From IMG/VR virus record IMGVR_UViG_2563366969_000005: 30,075 nucleotides of DNA; one strand, 5' to 3'. Each line of letters begins with the position of its first letter. The first letter of the stretch is position 1. The notes beneath the pieces were generated by a model that was given only the letters and a program-made list of their open reading frames with translations, was not told the origin of the DNA and made no database searches. Source of the stretch: a virus (taxonomy: Duplodnaviria; Heunggongvirae; Uroviricota; Caudoviricetes). This document shows, piece after piece, positions 1,527 through 9,507 of the stretch. Made by a program: the position numbers and the translations under genes.

Positions 1527-2387
1527 TTACACGTGTTTTTCCAATGTGAAAACTACAGCCCCGGCAGGAGTAATGTCTGTAATGTTGCATTCAAACTCAG
1601 CAGACTTATTTGACAACCTGACTTTTCCACCGGGCAAGCGAATTACATCAAAAACATCAAGAGCGCCGTCGATATCAATTAACCAGCGACCATTACTTAT
1701 ATTCGAAGCAGAACAGTCGACAAGCCAAGAGGCAGCTACACCGTCAACAAAAATCAATTCCCCTGAGTTAGAAGGAATCATTGAGGGGTCAGGATGCCAC
1801 GTTCCTGCATCCTTAAGCTCACCAGATTCAAGACGAGATTTTTTAATAGAAAAACCAGATGTGACATCTTCCCTGTTAGCTCGCATTTGCCCCTTGCCTG
1901 TTGCTAACCATTCCAGTGACGTATCGGTATCAAGAGCGCATGTAACAACAACATCACCAGGGAAAAAATCTCGCCTTACCCATGTGCTAATTGTGCCAGA
2001 GGAAATGCCGAGCAAATCACCGAGCTCCTTTTGCATGGTAAAGCCATACGCATCAAGAATCCTACGCAAAACGGTTTTACCACCATTCGTCATAATCTCG
2101 TCATAAAGCTCTTTGCCTTTTAACTTGCAACTGGCTCGCTCGTGATTTGCATTTGCAAGTTCTCCATTTACAAGCCAATTGATATCAGCTCCCGTGTCAA
2201 GACAACACCTAACTATGACATTGCCAGGTATTGCATCACGCTGAACCCAGCCGCTAACGCTGTGTTTAGCGATACCTAGCAGGTCAGCCAAATCCTTTTG
2301 CATCTTGACCCCATAGGCTGACATTAAGCGTTCCAATACGCCGTTCGTTGCACTAACACGCCACTGAACATCAAGCTCAGAACTCAT
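1527..2387 (-). CDS. Prophage repressor, CI-type, with tandemly duplicated N-terminal HTH domain
   Basis: 286-aa ORF with AGGGG Shine-Dalgarno upstream of the ATG at 2387. Residues about 15-78 and 104-168 are clear paralogous copies (shared motifs AYG..MQK.L.DLLGI, W..RD..PG.V.V.C.LDT, WL..G). Transcribed divergently from the Cox/Apl-CII operon, as expected for the immunity repressor. Confidence 0.85.
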   Translation of the reverse strand: MSSELDVQWRVSATNGVLERLMSAYGVKMQKDLADLLGIAKHSVSGWVQRDAIPGNVIVRCCLDTGADINWLVNGELANANHERASCKLKGKELYDEIMTNGGKTVLRRILDAYGFTMQKELGDLLGISSGTISTWVRRDFFPGDVVVTCALDTDTSLEWLATGKGQMRANREDVTSGFSIKKSRLESGELKDAGTWHPDPSMIPSNSGELIFVDGVAASWLVDCSASNISNGRWLIDIDGALDVFDVIRLPGGKVRLSNKSAEFECNITDITPAGAVVFTLEKHV

Positions 2388-4449: not shown

Positions 4450-6672
4450 TTGGCTGTTCAATTCGCTTATCCGTGGAACGTCCCACGGTCGGCAATCTCC
4501 AGCCCATACCTTACTTATGAGCAACAGCAAAGCCGCGACCGTATGTTCGCGGCTTTGCTGCATGCAAAAAAGGTGCTTTCTCTCCAGCCCGACTGCGTGC
4601 GGTTAGATGTTTATCGCACTGCTGCGGTGCTGGAACAAAATCAGGGTAGTCAACGAGCCAATGCATTTTTAATCAGCTTCTGCAAAAAGGCATTGCCGCG
4701 TCTTGAACTGGTCGCAAAAAAATACGAATGCGCTGGTATCAACAGCAAGGTATCAACCGCTGTTTTTGGAAGTCATTTTGATACTCAGCAAATGCAATAT
4801 CTGTCGTCACGCATGGTTAATATGGTCGCCCGATATAACCGTCTCCCGGACATGTCGCGCGCTGATGTTGACCTGTTGGCCGCTGATATTGCTAATTTCA
4901 TTCGTGGTGAACTTGCCAACATTAATGACCACGGATTCGGCGAGCTTAAAACGCTGTACACCTGGTATATTCGTGCTGGCTTTATTTCCCTCCAATTCAA
5001 CGTTATCCCACCACATTGGGAGCGGGTTGAAAAAAAATATGTCGGTGCGGATGAAATCGCACCGGCTATCGCCAAAATGTTTAACGATGGGTGGTGGCGC
5101 GGTCTTTTGCGCCGTGTAGCAGCTACGTGGCGCGAACACCTGCAAATTGCAGTCGGCAACGTCAGTAAGAAAAAAAACACTTACGCGAGTAAAAACTGCG
5201 TGACTGACTGGCGTGAACAAAAGCGCCGCACTCGTGAATTTCTCAAAGGTCTGGATCTCGAAGACGAAGACGGCAACCGTATCAGCCTAATTGAAAAATA
5301 TGATGGCTCAGTTGCTAACCCTGCGATTCGCCGCTGTGAGCTCATGACCCGCATTCGTGGGTTTGAAAACATCTGTAATGAGCTCGGTTATGTCGGTGAG
5401 TTTTACACTCTAACCGCGCCGTCAAAATATCACGCCACGACTAAAGCCGGTTACCGTAACAGCAAATGGAGCGGTGCCAGCCCGGCTGACACGCAAAACT
5501 ATCTAACCGGTATCTGGGCGCGTATCCGTGCCAAACTACATCGGGAAGATGTCCGTATTTTCGGTATTCGTGTCGCCGAGCCCCATCACGACGGCACTCC
5601 ACACTGGCACATGCTGATGTTCATGCTGCCGGAAGATGTTGAATATGTTCGCTCCATCGTCCGTAAATACGCATGGAAAGAAGACCGCCACGAACTGAAA
5701 AGCGATAAATCCCAAAAAGCACGTTTCCACGCGGAGTCCATTGACCCGGAGAAAGGCAGCGCAACCGGCTATGTTGCTAAATACATTTCAAAAAATATCG
5801 ACGGTTATGCTCTCGATGGTGAAACCGATGATGAAAGCGGTGAGCTGCTGAAAGAGACAGCCCCCGCCGTTTCAGCATGGGCTGCGCGCTGGCACATCCG
5901 TCAGTTTCAGTTTATTGGTGGTGCGCCGGTGACGGTTTACCGTGAGTTGCGTCGCCTCGCTGATACCGAAACCGCGCACGGTCTGAGCGTTGAGTTTGCC
6001 GCCGTCCATGATGCCGCCGACGCTGGTGACTGGGCTGGTTATGTTAATGCTCAGGGTGGGCCGTTTGTCCGTCGCGATGATTTACAGGTGCGCACACTGT
6101 ATGAACCGCGTACCGAGCTTAATCAGTACGGTGAGGAAACGGTATGTATTAAGGGGGTCTACGATTCCTCCATAGGTGCAGGAAGCCCGATTTTAACCCG
6201 GCTCACTCAGTGGAAGATTGTTCCGAAGCGTGCTGTTGATTTGGCCGTTGACCTTCAGGACGGCAAAGCCGTCCCTCGGAGTTCTGTCAATAACTGTACG
6301 GGAAGCGAAAGCGATCCACCGATACTGGATTTAACAAAACCACTGAGTCGGCGTGAAAGACGAGAATTGACCAACCGACTCAGGAAGCAAAAGCCAGCAG
6401 TACGGCGAAAATTCATCCACGGAACGGATGAGCAAAACGCAGCTATAGCTAAAACTATCGATGAGATACATCTGACAACCGGCATTAATATCAGCCGGGG
6501 CGAAGCCCTGCACCTGATGGCCGGTGGTAAAAGTTGTTTTGATGGTAAATGGCTACGCGGAACGGCCAAAGGAGAAATATTTTCCGCAGCACCATCGCAT
6601 GAGGCTAAAGCTCGGAAAATCCTTAATCGTGTTGCGGCGATGGCTGAAGCATCAAAACCAATACATGAGTAA
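4450..6672 (+). CDS. A: Replication initiation endonuclease gpA (rolling-circle Rep, P2 A-like)
   Basis: 740-aa ORF with an HUH-type motif (PHWHMLMF) and a downstream catalytic tyrosine context (GYVAKYISKN). The start is a TTG at 4450 after a G-run; an in-frame ATG at 4543 is an alternative. Confidence 0.9.
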   Translation: MAVQFAYPWNVPRSAISSPYLTYEQQQSRDRMFAALLHAKKVLSLQPDCVRLDVYRTAAVLEQNQGSQRANAFLISFCKKALPRLELVAKKYECAGINSKVSTAVFGSHFDTQQMQYLSSRMVNMVARYNRLPDMSRADVDLLAADIANFIRGELANINDHGFGELKTLYTWYIRAGFISLQFNVIPPHWERVEKKYVGADEIAPAIAKMFNDGWWRGLLRRVAATWREHLQIAVGNVSKKKNTYASKNCVTDWREQKRRTREFLKGLDLEDEDGNRISLIEKYDGSVANPAIRRCELMTRIRGFENICNELGYVGEFYTLTAPSKYHATTKAGYRNSKWSGASPADTQNYLTGIWARIRAKLHREDVRIFGIRVAEPHHDGTPHWHMLMFMLPEDVEYVRSIVRKYAWKEDRHELKSDKSQKARFHAESIDPEKGSATGYVAKYISKNIDGYALDGETDDESGELLKETAPAVSAWAARWHIRQFQFIGGAPVTVYRELRRLADTETAHGLSVEFAAVHDAADAGDWAGYVNAQGGPFVRRDDLQVRTLYEPRTELNQYGEETVCIKGVYDSSIGAGSPILTRLTQWKIVPKRAVDLAVDLQDGKAVPRSSVNNCTGSESDPPILDLTKPLSRRERRELTNRLRKQKPAVRRKFIHGTDEQNAAIAKTIDEIHLTTGINISRGEALHLMAGGKSCFDGKWLRGTAKGEIFSAAPSHEAKARKILNRVAAMAEASKPIHE

Positions 6673-6746
6673 TTCATATCCATATCATGCACATACAGCA
6701 ATCGCTCTATTCGTATTTTTTCTTCCCATCTTTTGCTAATACGTGC

Positions 6747-6766
6747 TACTGTATAAATATACAGTA
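6747..6766 (+). promoter_or_regulatory. LexA operator (SOS box) overlapping the promoter of the downstream operon
   Basis: tactgtataaatatacagta contains a perfect CTGT-N8-ACAG core (CTGTATAAATATACAG, 6749-6764), palindromic and AT-rich in the centre. A TTGCTA -35-like hexamer lies at 6733-6738. The operon ATG is 20 bp downstream. Confidence 0.8.
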
Positions 6767-6785
6767 ACCCTTTGGGAGGGATTTC

Positions 6786-6968
6786 ATGGTTGGCGAACAT
6801 TTCAGCCGAACGCAGCAAAAGTGGGCTTGTGTGCAATTTATTGCCGAGGTATCTCTGATTACAAACTGCAAGCCATCAGACTTAAAGCTCGCGCTCACTC
6901 TCATTGCAGACCTAGCAAACAGCGAAAATAACGAAACCGAAGATGATAATTTTTATAAGGCTGATTAG
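6786..6968 (+). CDS. Small SOS-operon protein, possible Tum-like antirepressor N-terminal part
   Basis: 60-aa ORF with GGGAGGG upstream, directly after the LexA box. Ends at a TAG that is in frame with the DinI-like gene 3 bp downstream. Confidence 0.5.
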   Translation: MVGEHFSRTQQKWACVQFIAEVSLITNCKPSDLKLALTLIADLANSENNETEDDNFYKAD

Positions 6969-6971
6969 ATT

Positions 6972-7205
6972 ATGAGAATCAATATCACGCTGGATAAAGA
7001 GCAAAAAATTAGTCAGGCAACATTGGATGCACTTGAGGCTGAACTGTACCGCAATCTTCAACCTATTTACCCAAAGACTGCTATCCGAATTCGCAAGGGC
7101 TCCGCTAATGGCGTTGAACTAAGCGGTTTGAAACTGGACGAAGATAAAAAACGAGTAATGGAAATCATGCAGCAGGTATGGGAGGACGATAGCTGGCTGC
7201 ATTAA
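6972..7205 (+). CDS. DinI-like protein (DinI / 186 Tum C-terminal domain family)
   Basis: 77 aa. MRINITLDKEQKISQATLDALEAELYRNLQPIYP...MEIMQQVWEDDSWL aligns by eye with E. coli DinI (MRIEVTIAK...ALAGEL...ISEILQETWE). LexA-box control fits an SOS-induced function. Confidence 0.85.
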   Translation: MRINITLDKEQKISQATLDALEAELYRNLQPIYPKTAIRIRKGSANGVELSGLKLDEDKKRVMEIMQQVWEDDSWLH

Positions 7206-7207
7206 CA

Positions 7208-7276
7208 AACGCCGCCGGTGCTGAAACTTGCTTTCAGTGCTGGCGGGGTTGAACAACTCGCACCGCGAGGCGCTAG
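7208..7276 (+). repeat. Copy 1 of a duplicated ~69-bp element containing a hairpin (7215-7243)
   Basis: aacgccgccggtgctgaaacttgctttcagtgctggcggggttgaacaactcgcaccgcgaggcgctag, immediately after the DinI-like stop. Closely matches the copy at 7613-7681. Confidence 0.7.
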
Positions 7277-7400
7277 TTCTTCCTCTCAAAGTTTCTCGAT
7301 GTTTTATTGGTTACACACCAGTGATGAATGGGACGTTACCTTAGCGGGTTTTATAGTGGCGCTGTGGCAGCACTAAATAAAATTCATTGAGGGCGATAAT

Positions 7401-7610
7401 ATGCATCGACTACCGGGCGAAATTCCGCAGCACAAAACTAAAAGCATCAAACTGATGGCCATCGTTCATCGTCTGCAGCAGATAATGGTCAATGAGAATT
7501 TGACACCCGCCGAGCTGGTCGGGTGTGCCGAAATAGTCAGGGATAATTACGGCACGCTGGATAGCATCAGCAAGCCGACATATTACTCACCGCCACCACG
7601 TCGACCATAG
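7401..7610 (+). CDS. Hypothetical small protein in the SOS operon
   Basis: 69-aa ORF with GAGGG 7 nt upstream of the ATG. Followed directly by repeat copy 2. Confidence 0.5.
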   Translation: MHRLPGEIPQHKTKSIKLMAIVHRLQQIMVNENLTPAELVGCAEIVRDNYGTLDSISKPTYYSPPPRRP

Positions 7611-7612
7611 AT

Positions 7613-7681
7613 AACGCCGCCGGAGCTGAAACTCGATTTCAGGTCTGGCGGGGTTGAACAACGAGCTACGCGAGGCGTTAG
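7613..7681 (+). repeat. Copy 2 of the duplicated ~69-bp hairpin-containing element
   Basis: aacgccgccggagctgaaactcgatttcaggtctggcggggttgaacaacgagctacgcgaggcgttag, immediately after the stop at 7610. Roughly 85 percent identical to copy 1 by eye. Confidence 0.7.
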
Positions 7682-7743
7682 CCGGTCATAGCGTCGCAAA
7701 TACTTCAACCGTCTGCTGGTTAAATAATTCGAGGTTTTTGGAC

Positions 7744-7938
7744 ATGCAAAATCCCCTTTCATCGAAAAATGACCCGTTTGCCGATTGGGCAAAGAATCTG
7801 ACTTTAATGGCTTTAAATAACGATCTGAGCTCTCGCGAGGTGGAAAGCTACACCGCAAAAATGGTCGAGCAGGCCGGTAAAGATGAGCTATCAGTCGTTA
7901 TCAAACACCTGTTAAATCACATCAGAATGCGCAAATAA
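7744..7938 (+). CDS. Hypothetical small protein in the SOS operon
   Basis: ATG 7744 with GAGG 9 nt upstream. The ORF-track version starts at a TTG (7654) inside repeat copy 2 and is judged too long. Confidence 0.45.
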   Translation: MQNPLSSKNDPFADWAKNLTLMALNNDLSSREVESYTAKMVEQAGKDELSVVIKHLLNHIRMRK

Positions 7939-7954
7939 GAGGAACTATATAAAT

Positions 7955-8056
7955 ATGTTATCTCTCGTTTATGAAAATCCGTGGACGACGATTTTTCTGA
8001 TGATTGTCGCCAGCATGTGCCTCAACAGTGTTATTGGCGCATTGCGCGGCCATTAA
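7955..8056 (+). CDS. Possible 33-aa hydrophobic peptide (MLSLVYENPWTTIFLMIVASMCLNSVIGALRGH)
   Basis: Short ORF below the ORF-track cutoff, translated by hand. AAGAGG lies about 12 nt upstream. It ends about 20 bp before a strong intrinsic terminator and has one predicted TM-like segment. Could be fortuitous. Confidence 0.25.
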   Translation: MLSLVYENPWTTIFLMIVASMCLNSVIGALRGH

Positions 8057-8076
8057 TCGCGACAAAACCAGACTAA

Positions 8077-8105
8077 AACCGGCACCCTGAATGCCGGTTT
8101 TTTTA
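8077..8105 (+). terminator. Rho-independent terminator ending the early/SOS transcription unit
   Basis: Stem aaccggca (8077-8084) / tgccggtt (8092-8099) with loop ccctgaa, followed by a run of T (through about 8104). Confidence 0.7.
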
Positions 8106-8264
8106 TGCCATTTTTCCGCGAACTTCCCGTTTTTTAGTCGTGCATGCATCAGGTGCATGGTTTTGCATGCGTCAGTCTTGCCCGTTCTGTCCGTGCGCCG
8201 CCAGAGCTAGCGCGGATCCAGAGTTGTCATGCAACTGCATTAAAACCGACCCATAAAGCGGGCA

Positions 8265-8283
8265 GGCGTGGCGGGGAAAGCAT
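8265..8283 (+). other. cos: cos site (19-nt cohesive-end sequence, 186-type)
   Basis: GGCGTGGCGGGGAAAGCAT. As I recall it this is the 186 cohesive end; P2 is GGCGAGGCGGGGAAAGCAC. It lies between the replication/SOS region and the portal gene, as expected in an integrated P2-family genome. Confidence 0.65.
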
Positions 8284-8502
8284 TGCGCGCCAGCAGTGAT
8301 GCGTAATAATAAAAATTATCCTCTGAGCGCGTCGTGATGGCGCTGTCGTGGTCGCTGCTGGTTCGTTGGTGGTCGGGTGTGTTCGTGCGCGTGAGACGCA
8401 TCTGATGCGTGATGGTGGTGTGCATGGAAAAGCCACCAGGAGCAGCGGCTTTACAGGAGTGGCAGGATTCAAACTGCTAATTATGTTTCTACTATGATTA
8501 AA

Positions 8503-9507
8503 CTAATTTACATGTATGTAGAGTTCACCGTCGCCAGACCAATCGGGACACTCTAAAACAAGCCCAAACTGCTTGAATATTTCATCAATGATTATTGTTA
8601 TCTCCCGAAAATCACCAAAACCTGTAATGTGCTGGTCATTAAACTTCCCATAAAGATTCTGAAAAGCAATGCCTAATTCTGATAATTGATATCTTATATT
8701 TGAGTTGGATAGTGTAAGGGATAGCTTTGGATCGTATTCTTTAATATTGATGTTTAGAGAATGGACATAACCCATCGCATAAGCATAAGAGTTGATGATT
8801 AGCCTGATACGTTTTTTTACTTCGAGATACATGTCATTCAGAGAAATATTACCGTACTTATAACCCCAGATGAGTTTTTCAATCTCGTCAGATACTTCAT
8901 TTACAACAGTGTCAAGATTCTCTAAAAATAAATCGATAGTTTCTTGAGGGGCAGACCCCGAAGACATGTAATTAGCGAGATATTCAGACCATGCACGCGT
9001 GGCTGAGATAAGAAGCGCGCTACCATACTCGTTGACTGTAAAGTTTTGGGCTAAGCATGTTAGTAAGTTTTTTTCATGTACGTGCACTAATTCATGGTGA
9101 ATGCGATGGATGACTGCGAGGTATCCTTCTTCTTTCAGTTTTAAGAAGCTACCATCATTGAAAAGCTCAACAAAAAAATCAATCGATAGCACAAGGGTAT
9201 ATTCTTCACATAGCCCATCATTGCCAATTTTTGTTACTAACTGCCCGACGGCTGCGCCCTGTTTGCTATTGGTAAATGAACTAGGGGATTTGTGTTGGTA
9301 AGAGGATGTTACCTTTTGAAGAGCTTCACTGAAGTTATAGGAAACAATCACGCATTTTAATTTGGAGATATCAAGATTGAGATTTTTTGTTAAAGCTCGG
9401 ATAGCTTCTAGTGTGAAATTACCGATATTATTTGCTTCTTGCTCAGTAGCGAAACCTTCGAGGGTTATTTTAAAATCAGTTTCCAAAATATTAATCTCCG
9501 CGCCCAT
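8503..9507 (-). CDS. AT-rich cargo protein of unknown function with His-rich HExxH motif; candidate anti-phage defence or exclusion gene
   Basis: 334-aa ORF, conspicuously AT-rich against a GC-rich backbone. Contains IHRIHHELVHVHEKN (HELVH is an HExxH pattern in a His cluster). Lies between cos and the portal gene, downstream of Q on the same strand. Weak Shine-Dalgarno. No family recognised. Confidence 0.8.
   Translation of the reverse strand: MGAEINILETDFKITLEGFATEQEANNIGNFTLEAIRALTKNLNLDISKLKCVIVSYNFSEALQKVTSSYQHKSPSSFTNSKQGAAVGQLVTKIGNDGLCEEYTLVLSIDFFVELFNDGSFLKLKEEGYLAVIHRIHHELVHVHEKNLLTCLAQNFTVNEYGSALLISATRAWSEYLANYMSSGSAPQETIDLFLENLDTVVNEVSDEIEKLIWGYKYGNISLNDMYLEVKKRIRLIINSYAYAMGYVHSLNINIKEYDPKLSLTLSNSNIRYQLSELGIAFQNLYGKFNDQHITGFGDFREITIIIDEIFKQFGLVLECPDWSGDGELYIHVN

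Follow-up and report, generated by a model that had tools for sequence, protein, structure and literature searches.

The 30,075-nucleotide stretch of virus DNA analysed here (hereafter, the window) carries a LexA-controlled pair of small genes that we identify, with a probability of about 0.85, as the PSP3-type (Eganvirus, 186-like) tumA-tumB SOS-induction operon of an Escherichia coli prophage. This two-gene arrangement is real and conserved, and having already been described for the phages PSP3 and Fels-2, it is not a new one. Judged from the comparisons with related loci, the in-frame TAG at 6966-6968, which separates the two genes, reads as a normal gene end and not as a mutation. The window as a whole represents a P2/186-like prophage, in which integrase, cI, cII, and replication gene A are followed by portal, terminase, and tail genes, and its region of interest (6680-7400) is 100% identical to the chromosome of E. 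coli FDAARGOS_1253. The features referred to throughout are as follows.

1527..2387, minus strand: cI, 186-type immunity repressor and presumed target of TumA (from Pfam)
6723..6752, plus strand: p95-like SOS promoter, predicted from its alignment with p95 as annotated in phage 186
6747..6766, no strand assigned: LexA operator (SOS box) TACTGTATAAATATACAGTA, predicted, overlapping the -10 element
6774..6780, plus strand: Shine-Dalgarno sequence of tumA, GGGAGGG, read from the sequence and conserved in the alignment of relatives
6786..6968, plus strand: tumA, 60 aa, putative antirepressor and homologue of the N-terminal part of 186 Tum; TAG stop at 6966-6968
6972..7205, plus strand: tumB, 77 aa, DinI family (Pfam DinI), starting 3 nt past the tumA stop
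7208..7250, no strand assigned: very stable hairpin with a 15-bp perfect stem (7212-7246), just 3' of the tumB stop

Predicted LexA operator and promoter, and the two reading frames

The predicted LexA operator is the 20-mer TACTGTATAAATATACAGTA (6747-6766), which agrees with the palindromic LexA consensus TACTGTATATATATACAGTA at 19 of 20 positions and encloses the 16-mer CTGTATAAATATACAG (6749-6764), the latter being identical in the window and PSP3. Within the 30-kb window, this is the sole site with three or fewer mismatches, and none of 100 shuffled sequences contained any such match; the bare CTGT-N8-ACAG motif is non-significant by itself, as it occurs at least once in 26 of 100 shuffles. 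A generic scan of 6600-7500 for sigma-70 promoters and terminators returned no call, and so we placed the promoter by homology to p95 of phage 186. Here, the upstream 60 nt and the annotated p95 promoter and LexA site of 186 can be aligned base for base, which gives a predicted -35 of TTCCCA (6723-6728), an 18-nt spacer, and a predicted -10 of TACTGT (6747-6752), while TTGCTA (6733-6738), proposed in an earlier note on this DNA, represents an alternative -35. The LexA box covers the -10 and starts at its first base, and the same layout is found in 186. With either choice of -35, the suggestion in the earlier note that an SOS box overlaps the core promoter is thus borne out. Moreover, the ACTGT...ACAGT half-sites are invariant across 13 aligned relatives, 186 included, and a CTG-N10-CAG box is positioned 35-41 nt 5' of the ATG of the tumA homologue in 25/25 loci from different species.

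Downstream of the operator, GGGAGG (6774-6779) provides a strong ribosome-binding site 6 nt ahead of the tumA ATG. The coordinates first given for the two ORFs (6786-6968 and 6972-7205) and their shared frame all proved correct, with the two starts lying 186 nt, or 62 codons, apart (6972-6786) and a single ATT (6969-6971) standing between the ORFs. The only Shine-Dalgarno-like element of tumB is an AAGG placed 11 nt upstream, and since the tumA stop also comes just 3 nt before the ATG, tumB is probably translationally coupled to tumA. The proposal that this second ORF is DinI-like held up well, as TumB matched Pfam DinI (PF06183) with an E value of 7e-24 (84.3 bits, the cut-off being 24.2; profile positions 2-63 of 63) and could be aligned from end to end with E. 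coli DinI (PDB 1GHH; E 2.6e-9). By virtue of this family membership, TumB may bind RecA filaments and modulate their co-protease activity.

As for the hairpin, the fold of 7200-7330 has an energy of -46 kcal/mol (z -3.75), and a 72-nt element (7205-7276) containing the hairpin is 93% identical to the 186 DNA downstream of orf97. The hairpin lacks a T-run and received no terminator call in the generic scan (6600-7500), and in an Rfam search of 6600-8500 at a permissive threshold, it matched no family, with just a chance-level Thr_leader (E 0.65) being returned for the region. Possibly, the hairpin would mark the transcript end of the operon or act as its stabilising element.

The stop codon between tumA and tumB

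Megablast against phage genomes returned matches of 93-95% identity in the Salmonella phages PSP3, SEN1, SW9, and SI22, the Escherichia phage Midge, and the Klebsiella phage RCIP0057. In PSP3 (GenBank AY135486), tumA is annotated as 'similar to 5' end 186 tum; UV induction of prophage' and tumB as 'similar to dinI and 3' end of 186 tum'. With TumA as the tblastn query, the phage collection yielded the PSP3 group only (10 records), and Fels-2 was not among them. In the published description, Lemire et al. (2011) likened 186 Tum to an antirepressor fused to DinI (PMC3121763), and the article describes tum in PSP3 and Fels-2 as split by a stop codon, with the antirepressor encoded by the upstream gene. 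For PSP3, the article attributes the antirepressor activity of the upstream gene to a personal communication of G. E. Christie, via Bunny et al. (2002) (PMC3121763).

When searched against 5.8 billion proteins, the 60-aa product returned 152 clusters, nearly all of which are 60-61 aa long and none of which includes a DinI domain. The genera represented are Escherichia, Salmonella, Klebsiella, Citrobacter, Cronobacter, Enterobacter, Yokenella, Kluyvera, Kosakonia, Buttiauxella, Atlantibacter, Phytobacter, and others. Among 1.84 billion representatives, an exhaustive HMM search recovered 35 clusters (50% identity level), mostly of 58-79 aa, and a DinI fusion was found in none of the 35. Moreover, the tumA homologue is a separate gene in 25/25 species-level loci, ending in TAG, TAA, or TGA, and all 27 loci examined have the stop. 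In loci with an adjoining DinI-like gene, the tumA-tumB gap is 3 nt and in frame in the PSP3 clade and in locus L015 (whose junction is TAA GCG ATG), 2 nt in L023, and 17 nt in L027. In 18 of the 25 species-level loci, no DinI-like sequence occurs downstream of tumA (1.5 kb fetched, less for one short contig), and both the LexA box and tumA are kept in these DinI-less loci. Because the DinI-like gene is missing from so many loci, and because gaps and frames vary among the others, the sequences indicate that the LexA box and the short gene are the constant unit, that the DinI-like gene is optional, and that an in-frame junction is not consistently required. Furthermore, tumA is under strong purifying selection, with dN/dS values of 0.03-0.13 between the window and other genera, at synonymous sites that are at or near saturation.

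Two alternatives had been put forward in the earlier note, these being a Tum homologue split by an amber mutation that affects inducibility and a genuine two-gene arrangement, and it is the latter that is correct. According to the former, a Tum gene of about 139 aa would have been recently broken by a nonsense mutation, leaving the prophage crippled or non-inducible, and this could account for two ORFs in one frame with just a TAG and one codon between them, as well as for the collinear alignment of 186 Tum through the stop. However, the same stop and junction are present in isolated, viable phages (PSP3, SEN1, SW9, SI22, and others) and in no fewer than 37 complete E. coli genomes, which carry separate annotations for the two genes, while the family is dominated by stand-alone homologues of 60-61 aa, with no fused homologue found. 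In addition, the type of stop codon and the tumA-tumB spacing vary among genera, and tumA and its stop persist despite the saturated synonymous sites. With the stop conserved across genera and the gene under purifying selection, we regard a recent lesion of this kind as exceedingly improbable. Pseudogene status for tumA was likewise rejected, given a stop in 27/27 loci, no fused homologue, and the low dN/dS range.

A leaky TAG, or one suppressed in amber-suppressor hosts, would instead yield a minor 139-aa TumA-TumB fusion, equivalent to 186 Tum and relevant to induction, next to the two separate proteins, and this we consider very unlikely. That stop and start lie in one frame with a single codon between them, that this junction is kept so in the PSP3 clade and the more distant L015, and that a fused form is functional in 186 all speak for such a product. 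Yet the frame is not conserved in distant relatives (gaps of 2 nt in L023, 17 nt in L027, and 10 nt in the E. coli HS prophage DuoHS), the stop in L015 is a TAA, and tumB is missing altogether from most relatives. The in-frame lineages, moreover, number two of five, which is close to the chance expectation of one in three. If read-through were true, there would be three products (antirepressor, DinI-like protein, and fusion), the ratio of which would set the induction threshold, and the junction would constitute a one-step route from a two-gene ancestor to the fused 186 tum. The reading we retain is that of two separate genes, with the TAG ending the first.

TumA, the CI repressor, and the predicted route of induction

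Pairwise BLASTP of TumA (ORF60) with 186 Tum gave no alignment. By hhalign, the TumA profile placed residues 16-47 onto Tum residues 14-45 without a gap (P 1.4e-4), and a broader TumA-family profile matched a 186-type N-domain profile with 94% probability (E 1.2e-7, 55 columns). In fact, tblastn with 186 Tum residues 14-145 produced one collinear alignment that passes through tumA, the stop, and tumB (E 1e-26). From these profile comparisons and this collinearity, TumA appears homologous to the N-terminal part of 186 Tum, by a similarity that is weak but real. The earlier note had envisaged, as the outcome that would speak against a Tum relationship, a 60-aa ORF conserved as a separate gene in relatives and with no likeness to the Tum N-terminal region; conservation as a separate gene was indeed found, whereas the absence of similarity was not. 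With the promoter, the N-terminal module in TumA, and TumB all aligning, the locus stands as a homologue of the 186 SOS (tum) operon, as that note had supposed.

For its part, TumB shares 47% identity with residues 71-145 of 186 Tum. Here, we noticed that residue 1 of TumB lines up with Tum residue 71, the position at which the 186 annotation puts a GTG start for an internal product, Tum95.5 ('truncated Tum - modulates SOS induction'), and this exact coincidence of starts is an addition of the present analysis. Given that internal start, a separate DinI part is produced by 186 as well. The N-domains of the 186 type often stand alone as 63-78-aa genes named 'Tum protein'. Since short forms commonly stand alone and the TumA searches returned no fused relative, the fused 186 Tum would most simply be a derived state of the same two modules, with the direction of change read from this distribution. 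As a separate observation, one stand-alone 186-type 'Tum protein' gene precedes a DNA methylase gene and not DinI.

The AlphaFold2 model of TumA (mean pLDDT 70) consists of two helices (residues 8-25 and 30-50) that form a two-helix hairpin, and the core KWACVQFIAEVSLIANCKPSDLKLALTLIADLA is almost invariant among homologues. A Pfam search with TumA matched no family, no relative turned up among PDB sequences searched with the TumA profile, and PADLOC matched neither tumA nor the downstream ORFs to a defence system. TumA does match PHROG 1993, which is listed under 'unknown function', and with RefSeq giving 'hypothetical protein' and Pfam no family, there is an annotation gap for this 60-aa gene, as a result of which the SOS inducibility of many Enterobacteriaceae P2/186-like prophages is not read off automatically. 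The value of our analysis is mainly in annotation and prediction, the locus being the 186-type SOS operon in its known tumA/tumB form. Otherwise, its addition is a modest one, namely that a short antirepressor under a LexA box would be the constant element, the DinI-like add-on optional, and the fused 186 Tum unusual.

With regard to the presumed target of TumA, the window CI matches Pfam Phage_CI_repr twice, its N-terminal helix-turn-helix domain being duplicated, as well as Phage_CI_C, and it shares 32% identity with 186 CI over the helix-turn-helix and C-terminal domains. The 186 CI is a non-cleaved repressor. When the window CI was compared with Pfam at E values up to 0.001, no peptidase family was matched, the hits being confined to helix-turn-helix and DNA-binding families and Phage_CI_C. 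Lambda-type induction by repressor self-cleavage was rejected, as the CI has no LexA/S24 peptidase match. Because the CI is of the 186 type and shows no match to a peptidase family, induction of this prophage by antirepression is well supported at the sequence level, and the earlier proposal of SOS wiring through antirepression, and not through repressor self-cleavage, is upheld to that extent.

Taken together with 186 homology, the sequence suggests the following course of events. In the lysogen, host LexA would bind at 6747-6766 and block the p95-like promoter. Upon DNA damage, the RecA-stimulated cleavage of LexA would free this promoter, and such derepression would lead to a tumA-tumB transcript. 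TumA, as a two-helix protein of about 60 aa, would then bind the 186-type CI and block its operator binding, so that CI would stay uncleaved and the lytic genes would switch on. TumB, made from the same mRNA and probably by coupling, would tune the SOS signal via host RecA filaments, in the role of an optional accessory module and not of the inducer. Antirepression of CI has been shown for 186 Tum, which binds CI and prevents operator binding (PMC3121763), and is genetically supported in PSP3 and DuoHS; for the TumA-CI pair of the window, we infer it by analogy.

The reverse assignment, in which TumB is the induction effector (via RecA filaments or CI) and the 60-aa ORF a leader or accessory peptide, receives very little credence from us. 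It gains from the DinI-like part of 186 belonging to the active Tum protein and from DinI homologues accompanying LexA-controlled antirepressor genes in the unrelated Gifsy prophages, but a LexA box and tumA occur without a DinI gene in 18 of 25 related loci, and tumA is strongly selected as a protein. Moreover, in DuoHS, a P2-like prophage of E. coli HS, mitomycin C lysis is abolished by an in-frame 'tum' deletion or by lexA(Ind-) (PMC12055606), and the gene deleted as 'tum' bears the locus tag ECHS_RS04495 (PMC12055606 supplement), meaning that induction is lost with the short ORF even though the DinI-like gene stays. Published work also gives the antirepressor activity in PSP3 to the upstream gene, and in Gifsy prophages induction was not measurably changed when the dinI homologues were deleted (PMC3121763). 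We thus keep TumA as the putative antirepressor, for which the DuoHS deletion serves as an analogy and is not a test of the TumA protein itself. In light of the unchanged induction in the Gifsy deletions, the contribution of TumB to induction may be a subtle one.

Comparison with known systems

The likeness to PSP3 (genus Eganvirus) extends over 721 nt at 94.5% DNA identity, with TumA being 97% and TumB 99% identical and the ORFs again comprising 60 aa and 77 aa. The TAG-ATT-ATG junction is identical, the tumA-tumB pair is likewise located directly downstream of replication gene A, and PSP3 also has a tandem-HTH CI (of equal annotated length) and the downstream orf37 homologue. Differences are at the strain level only and amount to a few substitutions, although the host of the window is E. 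coli and that of PSP3 is Salmonella. Phage 186 shares with the window a homologous promoter and LexA operator, an equal genomic position for the operon, and a CI of one family. In contrast, both modules of 186 Tum are found in one 146-aa polypeptide with a longer linker, whereas the window has two ORFs split by a TAG. The orf97 that is downstream in 186 is absent from the window, and the window CI, at 32% identity, has an extra HTH domain compared with 186 CI.

In DuoHS, the arrangement is similar in that a LexA box, a short ORF after gene A, and a separate DinI-like gene are all present. More specifically, ECHS_RS04495 is a 62-aa 'hypothetical protein' in RefSeq that directly follows gene A behind a LexA box; after a gap of 10 nt and in a different frame comes the 77-aa DinI-like ECHS_RS04500, which is 79% identical to TumB. 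However, the 62-aa ORF aligns with TumA only marginally, although the register is kept (P 2e-4), the 10-nt, out-of-frame gap differs from the in-frame 3 nt of the window, and the DuoHS CI has 189 aa, a single HTH, and 35% identity to the window CI. With the DinI-like protein 79% identical, the short ORF barely alignable, and CI at 35%, the pattern is that expected of a repressor-specific antirepressor, and the conservation of the DinI module while the short protein and CI diverge fits such an antirepressor alongside a host-directed DinI. Short ORFs of the DuoHS type were found in 66 records of the phage collection, including Salmonella phages and one Felsduovirus record.

The Salmonella Gifsy prophages have LexA-controlled operons of dinI, an antirepressor gene (gfoA/gftA), and irsA, and their repressor is uncleaved (PMC3121763). 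Like the window, they pair a small antirepressor with a DinI homologue in a LexA-repressed operon, but they are lambdoid phages, with dinI coming first (the order being reversed) and with repressors of the GfoR/GtgR family. Compared with E. coli DinI, TumB is phage-encoded, has 77 aa instead of 81 aa, and is predicted to be co-transcribed with an antirepressor, while its full-length alignment takes in the C-terminal acidic helix region ending in W.

Tandem helix-turn-helix domains in CI

The gene for the 186-type immunity repressor of the window, the presumed target of the antirepressor TumA, is as follows.

1527-2387, minus strand: cI, 285-286 aa

Here, we noticed that the N-terminal helix-turn-helix (HTH) domain of CI occurs in two tandem copies (residues about 16-75 and 105-164), each of which matches residues 12-71 of 186 CI, and that these are followed by a C-terminal domain of the 186 type. 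This duplication accounts for the greater length of the protein in comparison with 186 CI (about 190 aa). Moreover, the tandem-HTH architecture is common to the CI proteins of Salmonella phages PSP3 and SW9, the latter sharing 74% identity overall with the window CI and diverging most in the first HTH copy. While a 2011 paper credited PSP3 CI with a 'longer C-terminal domain', its extra length is instead an additional N-terminal HTH.

tumA loci in records of other species

Among the tumA loci fetched from other species' records, one from an Atlantibacter metagenome-assembled genome (L015) carries a DinI-like gene behind tumA.

1687-1916 of L015, 3' of tumA: DinI-like gene, junction TAA GCG ATG

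Because its similarity to TumB is split over two different frames, this gene is either frameshifted, and thus decaying, or the product of an assembly error. Two further loci, L008 and L011, come from records titled 'Bacillota bacterium' (a MAG) and 'Chryseobacterium sp.'. In sequence, both are P2-like prophage DNA of the kind typical of enterobacteria, which makes contamination or mis-binning of the underlying assemblies likely.

A low-GC ORF before the portal gene

The DNA that separates the tum region from the portal gene contains an ORF, on the strand opposite to the tum operon.

8503-9507, minus strand: ORF, 334 aa

With a GC content of 36-38%, below that of its flanks (about 52%), it looks like acquired cargo on compositional grounds. 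It had no match in Pfam or PADLOC, and its sole PHROG match was 11743, which is without known function. Its position is that of the variable cargo region near cos in P2-like phages, occupied in P2 by old and tin.

DNA downstream of tumB

Three features lie 3' of tumB, both ORFs being on its strand.

7205-7276, directly 3' of tumB: 72-nt element, hairpin at 7208-7250
7401-7610, plus strand: ORF, 69 aa, PHROG match of unknown function, PSP3 gp37 homologue
7654-7938, plus strand: ORF, 94 aa, PHROG match of unknown function

The 72-nt element, which has a perfect stem of 15 bp and no match in Rfam, is 93% identical to the 186 DNA downstream of orf97; the sequences on either side of it bear no relation to those of 186 or are missing, and orf97 itself is not in the window. 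The hairpin lacks a T-run on the plus strand, and on the minus strand reads as the stem and then CGTTTGTT. Since no terminator was predicted between tumB and the two small ORFs, both may be part of the SOS-induced transcript, a possible parallel to 186, in which orf97 lies within that transcript.
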